The position numbers and the translations under genes are program-made. DNA of 63,279 nt, filler included, from Stramenopiles sp. TOSAG23-6 (taxonomy: Eukaryota): NCBI GenBank assembly GCA_900128565.1. It is 3 parts of 3 records of this genome, joined end to end, with 100 filler letters (N's around TTAATTAATTAA, not from the genome) between each part and the next. Parts side by side here need not be neighbours in the genome. Positions count along the whole stretch, not along the records: positions 1 to 21,172 come from LT636030.1; 2 more parts are not named here. One strand, 5' to 3'. Every line of letters starts with the position of its first letter. Position 1 is the first letter of the stretch. The notes beneath the pieces are model-generated. The model saw nothing but the letters and a program-made list of their open reading frames with translations, made no database searches and had not been told where the DNA came from. Positions 10,012-13,467 of the stretch are shown here, piece after piece.

Positions 10012-13000
10012 ATGGATTGGGATGTAGGAAATGTTTTCTCGTCAGACCAAGCACTTCGGACTTTCAACCAAAACGATGATGACGCGGAAATGCAGCCTGT
10101 GAAAGCGCGCAATAAGTACCGTGAATTTATTCGTAATTTCCATGTAGGCTCTGTATTTATATACAGAGACCAGCTATTGCAGAATGTTCAACGAGGAAAG
10201 AATTTCCTTGAAGTTAGTTTAGAAGACTTAAGTAGTTTTGACTCAGGATTACAGGATATACTACAGGAACGCCCGGCAACGTTTTTACCACAGTTCGAGT
10301 TAGCTGCAAAAGACTTGGTGAAAGCATTACGTCCTGCAACCGATGACACTAGCGAAATACATGATATTCAGATTACATTAAAAAGTAAACAAGACCCAGT
10401 TTTGCTTCGTTCGATCAATGCATCACATGTGAATAAGCTAATTAAAGTTCCTGGTATAGTGATAAGTGCTAATAAAACTCGCCCAAAAGCTCTAGCAGTA
10501 CATATAAAATGTCGTGGTTGTAACCAAAGTCGCACATTACAATGTGGTGCTTCATTCCAACAAGTTCAATTGCCACGAAATTGTGATCGTGAAAAACTTC
10601 CAGGTGAAGCCGCTTGTCCTGTAGATCCTTTTGTGATTTGTCCAGATAAATGTGTATATGTTGATCAACAGACTCTAAAATTACAGGAGGCTCCAGAAGT
10701 AGTACCCACGGGTGAAATGCCTAGACATGTACTTCTCACTGTAGATCGTACGTTTTTTATGACATGTTGCATACATCAATTTTTTTTTCATGAAAAAAAA
10801 TTATATACCTAACAATTTTTATTTTTCTGACATATTTTTTTTAACAGTAAAGGGTCACTTTCTAATAGACTTGCGCCTGGAGTTCGAATTTGCGTCATTG
10901 GCATTTCATCCATTATTAATTCTGGTGCCGGTAATAAACTTGGTTCAGGTTCTATACGCACGCCTTATATTAAAGTAGTTGGGTTGCAGAGAGAACGTGC
11001 TGGGGCTGGAGAGACAGTGTATGTTTTCATGATGAATTTCTAATTGATTTTTTTTCATAGTAAATTTTGTACCTAACGATTTTTTTTACGAAAAAAAAAA
11101 TATTTTTTTACAATACGTCACTTGGACACCAGAAGAAGAAGAAAAATTTATTGCAATGAGCCGAGATCCAAATGTATATGATAAAATTTGTCGCTCTATA
11201 TCGCCTGCGATATCTGGGGAGTATGTACATTTTCATTATGAATTTCAAATGTATTGTTTATATTTATTTTTTCCTAGAAAATTCCGTACCTAACGATTTT
11301 TTTTACTAAAAAACAAATATTTTTCACAAAGATATACTGTAGATATAAAGAAAGCCGTAGCAGCTCTTCTTTTTGGAGGTTCGCGAAAATCTTTACCCGA
11401 TGGTATGTATGTTTTATTTTTTTTCAATTTTGAATTTGTTTTTTATAAAAATTTCGTACCTAACAAATTTTAGTTTTTTTTTTTGAAATNTTTTTTTNAA
11501 ATACATGNAACTCCGAGGTGATATAAATGTTTTGTTACTCGGAGATCCATCGACAGCAAAGTCTCAATTTTTGAAGTTTGTTGAAAAAGCTGCGCCAATT
11601 AGTGTGTACGTTTTCATCATGAATTTCGGAATTATTTTTTTTTCGTAGTTAATTTTGTACCTAACAAATTTAAGTTTTTTTTTTGAAATATTTTTTCACA
11701 ATTCATGTACACGTCAGGGAAAGGAAGTAGTGCTGCTGGTTTAACAGCTTCCGTTGTCCGAGATTCTCGAGGAGATTTTTACCTTGAAGGTGGTGCAATG
11801 TAGGTGTTCAACATGAATTTTAATTTTTTTTCTTTTATTTTTTCAATCTCAAATGTTCACAAACTTGAGTGTATAATATGTTTTTCACAATACATGGTTC
11901 TTGCTGATGTCCGTTTCCAAAAAAAAAATGTAAGGCTATATATTTTTTTTCGTAGTAAATTTTGTACCTAACAAAAAAAATGAAAAAATGAAATATTTTC
12001 CTTCGATTACATGGTGGTGTTGTATGTATTGATGAGTTTGATAAAATGAGAGAACAAGACCGAGTCGCTATTCATGAAGCAATGGAACAACAGACTATAT
12101 CAGTAGCTAAAGCAGGAATTACGACAATATTAAACTCGAGGGTATGTATGTTTTATTTTGTTTATTATTTTTTTTTTGGTAGAAAATTTCATACCTAACA
12201 AATGTTTTTTTATTTTCTTGAAATATTTTGTAGAATAAATCCGTTCTCGCTGCTGCTAATCCAGTATATGGTCGATATGATGACGATCGTTCGGCTGCTG
12301 AAAATATTGATTTTCTTCCTACCATTCTTTCCAGATTTGATCTTATATTTATTGTTCGTGATATTCAAGATGAAAACAGAGATATGTCGATAGCTCGTCA
12401 CGTTATGGGAGTCCATATCAATGCTGGGACCCAGAGTAGAGGTAAAGTGGAAGGAGAAATTGATTTGGATACAATGACAAAATATGTACGTTTTCACAAT
12501 TAATTTCAAATTATTTTTTTTTCGTACGGAATTTTGTACCTAACGATTTTTTTACCAAAAAAAAAAAATTCTTTTTCACAATACATGTGTCATACTGTAG
12601 ACATAAATGTGCTCCTCGCTTGTCTCCAGAAGCCAGTGAAGTTCTACGTACTCATTACGTACATGTATGTTTTAATCATTAATTTTAAATTTCGTTTTTT
12701 TAAATTTCTTTCCTGAAATTTTTGTTTTTACAAAAAAAAAATGCGTACACCTAACAAATAAATGAGATAAATGAAATTTTTGAATATTTTTTTACAATGT
12801 AGATACGTGCTTCCGCTCGTGCTCGAAGTGCAGATGAAGTATCAACCATTCCGATTACTGTACGGCAACTGGAAGCAATCGTTCGAATTTCAGAATCTCT
12901 AGCAAAAATGACTTTAAGCAATGAAGCAACAGTGGAACATGTTTGTTTTCATCATGAATTTCAAATTTATTATTTTTTTTTATGAATTTCAAATTTTTTT

Positions 13001-13467
13001 TTTTTTTTTTTTTTGTACCGAACGATTTTTTTAACCAATTTCGATTTTTTATTTTCTTCACAATTCATGTGGAAGAAGCTATACGTCTATTTAAAGTGTC
13101 GACACTTCATGCAGCGCAATCAGGGTCACTCATTGGGGAGAGTGGGTTAAAAGATGGCGTACGTTTTCATACTGAATTTCAGATTATTTTTATTTTTTTT
13201 TTTGTGCCTTTTGAATTTTTTACTAAAAAGAAAAAGAAAAAAAAATATTTTTTCACAATATATGTTCTCAAAGAAGTTCAAGCAGTAGAAGATCAACTAA
13301 AACGTCGTGTAGCAATAGGTGCTAATATCTCAGTGAAGAGAGTTGTTGAAGAATTTCAACGTCAGGGTCATAGTGAGTATTCTATTCGAAAGGCAATTCA
13401 TGTCATGGTGAATCGGGGTGACATGGCCCATAGGCAACAGCGGAAGCACCTTCGCCGAATGCGATAG
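10012..13467 (+). CDS. MCM5: DNA replication licensing factor MCM5, 13 exons
   Basis: Introns 10748-10852, 11019-11118, 11225-11335, 11407-11506, 11606-11706, 11800-11895, 11909-12012, 12146-12240, 12486-12586, 12665-12802, 12941-13068, 13159-13263. The spliced product gives [75 protein letters not shown]. Confidence 0.96.
10748..13263 (+). mobile_element. densest cluster (12 copies) of the repeated non-canonical GT-AT intron family, introner-like; about 42 copies across the window
   Basis: Shared 5' GTAYGTTTT, core AAATTTTGTACCTAAC and 3' AATATTTTTCACAATACAT; always in the sense orientation of the host gene. Intron status is well supported; mobility is inference. Confidence 0.75.

Follow-up and report, generated by a model that had tools for sequence, protein, structure and literature searches.

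Introns ending in AT are copies of one introner-like family in eleven genes of a stramenopile genome assembly

In a 63,279-nt stretch of the draft genome of Stramenopiles sp. TOSAG23-6 (GenBank assembly GCA_900128565.1), hereafter the window, we found 39 complete introns spread over 11 genes, including those for a RecQ4-like helicase, MCM5, a transporter-like protein, VPS53 and HSP70, and all 39 are copies of a single introner-like family, as seen in a repeat scan and in a profile search. When each intron is counted from the first G of a 5' GTAYGT to the last T of a 3' ACAT, boundaries that we call the family register, 33 have GT-AT ends, two GT-GT, two GT-AG, one GC-AT and one AT-AT. Hence the 5' dinucleotide is GT in 37 introns, GC in one and AT in one, while at the 3' end, where introns of the major spliceosome carry AG, AT is found 35 times, GT twice and AG in only 2 of 39. 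We consider it probable, at about 0.7, that these introns belong to the major spliceosomal type and are spliced after AT, at a site found by means of a conserved 3' block or of its distance from the branch point. The window joins three parts of three records of this genome end to end (positions 1 to 21,172 come from LT636030.1); it is eukaryotic DNA of 35% GC with single Ns and scaffold gaps, and all counts given below refer to this one 63-kb window. The original prediction, made from the DNA alone, had reported the same 39 introns in 11 genes with 35 AT, 2 GT and 2 AG ends, a count that profile-based placement reproduced exactly.

The family was delimited with a profile built from 17 clear copies, which gave 70 matches in the window at E <= 10 and 45 at E <= 0.06, with E-values of the best copies down to 2.7e-20. 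Among these 45 matches, 41 make up the 39 complete introns (two introns have two matches each), three are copies truncated by the end of the window or by N gaps, and one is a non-coding 36-nt fragment at 53753-53718. Copy length ranges from 87 to 174 nt with a median of 99 nt, the GC content is 19%, and 29 aligned copies have a mean pairwise identity of 71%. Each has the same layout: GTAYGTTTT at the 5' end, then ACCTAAC as a branch-like motif, a T-run and, at the 3' end, a conserved block that ends in ACAT and has a consensus of roughly TTTTYCAMAATACAT. A degenerate piece of the family at 53687-53790 on the minus strand (E 0.0057), in which ACCTAAC is still present, lies between two genes and is the sole copy found outside a reading frame.

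Conservation position by position, taken from a profile of 36 copies, is concentrated at the two ends. The two exon bases before the 5' junction are A (63%) and T (88%), and the intron then begins with G 97%, T 97%, A 91%, Y, G 88%, T 100%, T 97%, T 97% and T 97%, so that positions +1 to +9 are conserved at 88-100% except for the Y at +4. The interior, which contains ACCTAAC, is mostly conserved at 35-60%, and the exact heptamer occurs 30 times in the window, both strands counted. Towards the 3' end, the T-run at -16 to -12 is conserved at 80-97%, and the 3' block reads C 69%, A 91%, C or A, A 100%, A 91%, T 97%, A 88%, C 72%, A 94% and T 94%, followed by exon G 63% and T 57%; positions -9, -7, -6, -5, -4, -2 and -1 thus fall at 88-100%. 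Both AG ends and both GT ends share the register position of the AT ends, and the original prediction was right in assigning the AG ends to the same place in the 3' motif. A CTAAC-like motif, the putative branch site, is present in 34 of the 37 introns examined, at a median of 39.5 nt from the 3' end (range 8-48). The stretch from this motif to the 3' end holds a median of five ATs, and in 8 of the 34 introns it also holds AG, which is apparently skipped, so that the splice site can be neither the first AT nor the first AG. The typical junction is AT/GT...ACAT/G, where the slash marks the splice junction. Eight phase-2 introns split an ATG (Met) codon as AT/G, which fits a preferred AT/G context of insertion or of splicing.

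All 39 complete copies lie on the coding strand of their genes, which under orientation-neutral removal would have P about 2e-12. With the register unit taken out, the longest open frames on either side of it are joined in 34 of 39 cases (32 of 37, plus two added later), where one third would be expected (binomial P about 5e-12). In each of the five cases that do not conform, the exon is short and has another frame open by chance; two of them are in MCM5, where the join is confirmed by homology. Translation cannot simply run on through the inserts, because 22 of the 39 have a length that is not divisible by three. To these frame data we can add a scan for the first AG at least 8 nt past the branch-like motif, carried out on the 34 introns (of 37 examined) that have such a motif: this AG falls in the downstream exon in 26 of 34 introns, and relative to the register end it keeps the frame in only 10, being out of frame in the other 24.

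The most detailed evidence comes from three conserved genes, in which the junctions are resolved to the amino acid. Register cuts restore MCM5, HSP70 and RecQ4 proteins that are collinear with their homologues at 19 junctions, and at each junction we compared the register with all frame-keeping, stop-free GT-AG, GC-AG, AT-AC and GT-AT pairs whose 5' end lay within 45 nt and whose 3' end lay -70 to +45 nt from it. Three of the 19 allow a lossless GT-AG or GC-AG reading: MCM5 introns 1 and 10 as they stand, and MCM5 intron 3 once its cuts are moved by four bases, which is a synonymous change. At one RecQ4 intron (384-211), in an unconserved stretch, the register is outscored by 0.7 bits by a GT-AG reading with its 3' end 18 nt farther downstream. 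Each of the remaining 15 either loses 4 to 27 bits under its best GT-AG or GC-AG alternative or has no such pair among the best-scoring alternatives listed. Judged by protein homology, a non-AG 3' end is needed at 15 of the 19 tested junctions.

The MCM5 coding region (10012-13464, plus strand; stop codon 13465-13467) comprises 13 exons and 723 codons. Scored against a profile of 36 full-length homologues, the model reaches 1174.6 bits, compared with 818.4 for P0001, a database prediction that is 100% identical to the exons, and it is collinear with the seven displayed homologues at 12 of 12 junctions, with the conserved blocks ungapped. Intron 1 (10748-10852) is a GT-AG copy of the family for which any shift to the left costs at least 4.2 bits. 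Intron 2 (11019-11118) is GT-GT and could slide to GT-AC, and no GT-AG or GC-AG pair occurs among the nine best frame-keeping alternatives listed. Intron 3 (11225-11335) is GT-AT in the register; here the MCM5 boundaries of the original prediction hold, but a GT-AG reading with its boundaries four bases farther upstream is open to it as well, at the price of a synonymous change only. Intron 4 (11407-11506), GT-AT, restores LPDGM.LRGD, and an AT-AC reading of it gives the same mRNA. Intron 5 (11606-11706), also GT-AT, restores PISVYTSGKG. The weakest match to the family (E 0.053) is intron 6 (11800-11895), GT-AT, for which the best GC-AG reading costs 15.6 bits. It is separated from intron 7 by a micro-exon of 13 nt (11896-11908) that supplies VLAD; as this exon lies between two family copies, two insertions have landed 13 bases apart.

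Intron 7 (11909-12012), GT-AT, lies directly before Walker B. The original prediction had placed this junction correctly, and the first AG to follow the branch motif is indeed found 24 nt beyond the start of the next exon, at the Walker B residues; splicing at this AG would delete them. Intron 8 (12146-12240), GT-AT, could be read as GT-AG at a cost of 6.0 bits and with one residue more. Intron 9 (12486-12586) is GT-AT, with AT-AC giving the same mRNA, and intron 10 (12665-12802) is GT-AG, its AG standing at the register position of the AT ends. Intron 11 (12941-13068), GT-AT, contains an internal partial duplication of its 5' part, and its best GT-AG reading costs 13.8 bits. Intron 12 (13159-13263), GT-AT, follows an exon that ends in GC, in a poorly conserved region.

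For the other two genes we used profiles of 13 homologue segments (RecQ4) and 71 homologues (HSP70). With register junctions the helicase part of RecQ4 reaches 475.1 bits, where the existing prediction P0361 reaches 402.6, and the HSP70 model scores 1023.3 bits. The junctions YH/AGL and VAF/GMG in the RecQ4-like gene and VH/EVVLVGG in HSP70, which had been named in the original prediction, are borne out by the homologue profiles. All four RecQ4-like introns are on the minus strand. The intron at 721-819 is GT-AT and restores VATVAF/GMG, with the best canonical alternative costing 19.9 bits; that at 905-998 is GT-AT and restores YH/AGL; that at 496-596 is GT-GT; and that at 211-384 is a GT-AT intron of 174 nt made of two tandem family copies. 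In this tandem the first copy is without the 3' block and the second starts with GC, and removal as one 174-nt unit keeps the frame. HSP70 (55526-58196), likewise on the minus strand, has GT-AT introns at 56316-56407, which restores a protein stretch of 16 letters, at 56812-56919, which restores VH/EVVLVGG, and at 57090-57187.

The bases that flank the junctions often repeat, typically as AT/GT...ACAT/GT, and because of these repeats the cut sites can slide without a change in the mRNA. GT-AT fits 33 of the 39 introns, TG-CA 24, TA-TG 19, AT-AC 17 and GT-AC 5. Protein evidence narrows this choice. A slide of +1 is excluded at RecQ4 819-721, where it loses 4.4 bits, and it costs about 2.5 bits at each of MCM5 introns 3 and 8 and 1.2 bits at HSP70 intron 1; a slide of -2 is disfavoured at MCM5 intron 5 (2.6 bits) and intron 1 (5.4 bits); and the MCM5 intron at 10748 loses 4.2 bits at -1. 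The slippage argument of the original prediction for a GT start, which relied on the intron at 819-721 (+1) and on those at 10748 and 11606 (upstream shifts), therefore holds. We prefer GT-AT over TG-CA and AT-AC on parsimony, short of proof, because it fits 33 of 39 introns and keeps a canonical 5' GTAYGT; over TG-CA it is also preferred because G at +1 and T at +2 are each 97% conserved, compared with 63% and 88% for the two preceding exon bases.

The explanation that we favour would begin with a recent burst of one introner-like mobile element of about 95-105 nt that created the introns, each copy bringing its own signals, namely a yeast-like 5' site GTAYGTTTT, a T-run, the 3' block and, some 40 nt before the 3' end, a branch-like ACCTAAC. 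The unit removed would run from the first G to the last T of the 3' block, so that the intron ends in AT and not AG. The second step of splicing would then accept U as the last intron base, and it would also accept G there (the two AG ends) or G before the final T (the two GT ends), with the 3' site found through the extended 3' block or the branch-point distance and not through scanning for the first AG. Spliceosomal removal from the transcript is suggested by the sense-only orientation, the textbook 5' site, the CTAAC, the T-run and the precise restoration of the proteins, and a recent introner-like invasion is suggested by the repeated-family nature of the introns. From the DNA we thus infer both the involvement of the spliceosome and the cut after AT. 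The original prediction had the boundaries, the counts and the GT start right, but it missed the common origin of all the introns as one introner-like repeat. Its 35 AT ends were counted correctly, and yet they are not 35 independent origins but copies of one family. Since all copies derive from one repeat, each has inherited its AT end with the element; in place of 35 separate mutations, the account would be one of introns that invaded the genome and of a spliceosome that tolerates them or has been altered. That GT-AT became the default intron type here by way of an introner burst, with a major spliceosome that cuts after AU, tolerates G at either of the last two positions and reads a 3' block of 10-16 nt, is a wider proposal towards which we lean.

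Several points weigh against this explanation. To our knowledge, a second step that pairs G(+1) with U(-1) is not an established chemistry of the spliceosome. Inheritance of the AT ends from one element means that their number is not independent evidence of selection. The choice of the correct AT, among the several that follow the branch motif, is unexplained, and the branch-point distances are approximate, the heuristic having chosen a nearer TTTAAC- or TCTGAC-like motif in five introns, from which the short values stem. A slide of -1 is excluded by protein evidence only at the AG-type intron 10748, and both AT-AC and TG-CA fit many introns (17 and 24 of 39) with the same mRNA. In addition, protein searches with an MCM5 exon and an HSP70 exon found no protein of this species that derives from a transcript and crosses a junction; P0001 was alone in matching at 100% there, and so was P0361 in a representative search.

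The freedom to slide invites the alternative that the same introns yield the same mRNA through cuts placed two bases upstream, as AT-AC (or GT-AC) introns of the minor or, rarely, the major spliceosome. The 17 introns that allow AT-AC and the five that allow GT-AC without a change in the mRNA agree with it, and ACCTAAC loosely resembles the U12 branch consensus. The remaining introns, however, would then change conserved residues or take on mixed ends (TC-AA, GT-TC, AT-AA, AT-TC, GC-AT), and the GT at +1 and +2 is better conserved than the two exon bases at which such introns would begin. Moreover, the U12 5' consensus is RTATCCTT, which GTAYGTTTT does not match, and the branch motif, rather than lying about 9-15 nt from the 3' end, has a median distance that is far outside the 9-12 nt window of U12-type introns, so that we regard this alternative as unlikely. 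If, on the other hand, no precise removal took place, the AT ends would be an artefact of forcing homology onto pseudogenes, onto introns spliced at nearby AGs or onto inserts passed by ribosome bypass. This would sit well with the lossless GT-AG reading of 11225-11335, with the slightly better GT-AG score at 384-211 and with MCM5 intron 8, where GT-AG costs only one extra residue. But the exons of all 11 genes are open and conserved, no AG reading keeps the conserved blocks at 15 of the 19 tested junctions, and use of the first downstream AG would break the frame in 24 of 34 introns and remove Walker B at 11909-12012, all of which makes imprecise removal very unlikely.

Removal of the inserts from RNA by a route other than the spliceosome, with complementary ends joining the junctions in the manner of euglenid or Amoebophrya introns or, more remotely, with group-II-like machinery, is an improbable reading in our view, despite several features that recall it. 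The intron ends are complementary, in that GTA and TTT can pair with AAA and TAC (bases -9 to -3) in 86% of cells, compared with 26-66% when the partner is slid; an AT end and a conserved 10-nt 3' block are unusual for spliceosomal introns; and non-canonical introns with inverted and direct terminal repeats are described for Amoebophrya in the available portion of PMC7789003. Against this, RNAalifold found no consensus pairs in the aligned copies, the helix that the ends would form shows no compensatory changes and does no better than shuffles, and the copies carry a textbook 5' splice site, CTAAC and a T-run. Euglenid-type introns would have a stable structure that joins the ends and variable borders, whereas here there is no fold and the borders are uniform. 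Group II introns have the boundaries GUGYG...AY, which GUAYG...AU resembles in letters only, and a search of the window at Rfam gathering scores, which would detect the domain V/VI of group II or III introns, found no group II intron or other structured RNA in the introns, the only match being a ribosomal RNA (rRNA) fragment. Excision of the inserts from DNA, by ciliate-type elimination or as transposons, so that the expressed gene copies would be free of them, strikes us as scarcely probable at all. It would account for a repeated family with termini that look like inverted repeats in a single-cell-like draft assembly with gaps, and the last two exon bases match the last two intron bases 58 times against 54.4 in shuffles (p = 0.011). 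This is a weak 2-nt signal, however, and no window other than -2 to -1 exceeds the shuffles; the copies also carry RNA splicing signals, and excision would not require a sense orientation in all 39. Ciliate-type elements are independent of orientation and have TA-type boundaries, whereas the boundaries here are GT...AT. No transposase was found among the 17 open reading frame (ORF) pieces scanned. The idea that the AT end is a simple 2-bp copy of the exon end was rejected, because 8 of 37 upstream exons end in GT and only two of the introns that follow them do so.

Spliceosomal introns that are cut after AT would find their nearest counterparts in several known systems. Like the introners of Micromonas, Aureococcus, dinoflagellates and fungi, the family consists of many near-identical short introns in unrelated genes (39 complete copies, 11 genes, 63 kb) that bring their own splice signals and are richer in AT than the exons, and it loads the genes very unevenly, with 12 copies in MCM5 and none in several ORFs of more than 1000 codons. 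Introner families without clear target-site duplications exist (PMC9860276, in the portion available), but the families described in the available portions of PMC9860276 and PMC12130899 use GY-AG sites, and no GT-AT family is among them there. According to the part of PMC12130899 available to us, introner surveys start from annotated introns and drop families with unfamiliar splice sites that are without transcript support, and hence a GT-AT family would be missed. With the major introns of yeast type the copies share the extended 5' GTAYGT and a branch core, CTAAC, that lies tens of bases before the 3' end, the predicted branch site (34 of 37 introns) being followed by a T-run as well; they differ from them in the near absence of 3' AG and in the AGs that are skipped before the end. 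The U12-type introns of Physarum with non-canonical ends are a small minority class with an RTATCYTT 5' motif and a branch site at 9-12 nt, and neither of these is found here.

In the tunicate Fritillaria borealis, as here, most introns break the GT-AG rule; they are removed by the major spliceosome, divergent U2AF paralogues recognise the non-canonical 3' ends, and the introns are linked to mobile elements (PMC13326754, in the portion available). Fewer than 10% of the introns of this animal are GT-AG, however, and its 5' ends are non-canonical too, whereas our stramenopile-like protist retains the 5' GT in 37 of 39 introns and has a single prevailing 3' dinucleotide. Amoebophrya, also a marine protist, has repeated intron families with complementary ends, non-canonical borders and a spread like that of mobile elements, but no dominant pair of dinucleotides and inverted repeats of 8-20 nt that form hairpins (PMC7789003, as far as its available text goes); in our family, by contrast, a single pair prevails (33 of 39), the copies are not predicted to fold stably, and the 5' splice-site and branch motifs are clear. 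The nonconventional introns of euglenids share the non-canonical borders and complementary ends (available part of PMC4770533) but have variable borders and a stable end-pairing structure, where the present copies have uniform borders and neither structure nor covariation. The GT-AT introner family thus appears to be a new variant of transposon-like non-canonical introns, one that we have not found described. We found no published description of a genome dominated by GT-AT introns or of a peculiarity of introns in marine stramenopile group 3 (MAST-3), with the caveat that intron tables in supplements could differ, and the available portions of single-cell genome papers on MAST lineages (PMC5778133, 10.64898/2026.04.17.719054, PMC8163842) hold nothing on unusual splice sites. 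A strict pattern of the family gave 0 matches in metagenome_contigs and 0 in viral_contigs, so that the family is absent there in that form, which has no bearing on spliced RNA.

The 3' AG is among the most constant signals of eukaryotic gene expression, and a free-living marine protist in which nearly all introns are GT...AT would offer a clean natural experiment on how the second step reads the last intron base, and would also bear on the mutual adaptation of a mobile intron family and the spliceosome. If GT-AT has become the default intron type here, this would be the first eukaryote in which AG is the exception, and one in which the G(+1)/G(-1) contact of the catalytic centre has been replaced in nature. 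There is a practical side as well, because pipelines that accept only canonical sites mis-build such genes, which would bias gene counts, completeness scores and inferred gene losses. Indeed, P0001 (MCM5, 10012-13464; its name in the database points to a MAST-3-type assembly in EukProt) and P0361 (RecQ4-like, 66-4028), both 100% identical to exons of these genes, include translated intron sequence and leave out VYTSGK, Walker B, YHAGL and VATVAF, which shows that the introns went unrecognised when these models were made. Four sequencing runs recorded as RNA share 7-12% of the sampled words of positions 5501-15500, and seawater DNA runs share 34-73%; these shares are no evidence of expression or of habitat.

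The remaining copies are distributed over the rest of the window. On the plus strand, a GT-AT intron at 5434-5520 joins the open frames 4508-5433 and 5521-8920, with 308 open codons on the shorter side. The transporter-like gene, also on the plus strand, has five introns, at 19427-19533 (GT-AT), 20079-20175 (GC-AT), 20338-20434 (GT-AT), 20562-20713 (GT-AT, 152 nt) and 20840-20935 (GT-AT), and its model is a single open frame across all five. On the minus strand, the gene at 29064-30732 contains GT-AT copies at 29844-29937 and 29669-29764, and further GT-AT copies lie at 31552-31638 (173 open codons), 32089-32182 and 32348-32436, the last with a tie in the open-frame test. VPS53, on the same strand, has GT-AT introns at 34193-34282, 34348-34455 and 34515-34617, and another minus-strand GT-AT copy is at 50395-50499 (258 open codons). 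The plus-strand copy at 52518-52615 is AT-AT in the register, its first base being A and not G; an in-frame GT 9 nt upstream might be used instead, and the gene is too little conserved to tell. Four more GT-AT copies on the plus strand are at 61589-61687, where the upstream exon ends in AA, at 61802-61899, where it ends in TA, and at 62241-62334 and 62929-63021.

Some features of the assembly and of the neighbouring genes are also of note. Each large N gap is divided by a 12-base linker, ttaattaattaa, at 21217-21228 and 42331-42342, with stops in all frames. It looks like an artificial scaffold spacer, and for this reason the sequence on its two sides need not be contiguous. The rRNA fragment found in the Rfam search, at 42475-42917 on the minus strand, is of the eukaryotic small subunit (model positions 34-476 of 1831, 406 bits); it lies just past an N gap, beside the 5' end of an ORF of 1532 codons in which the gap truncates the first intron copy, and it may represent a scaffolding join or an amplification chimera. 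Finally, a 904-codon ORF at 45737-48448 on the minus strand joins a lycopene cyclase domain to a domain of fatty-acid-desaturase type, and may be tied to the synthesis of carotenoids or retinal in what is presumably a heterotrophic flagellate.

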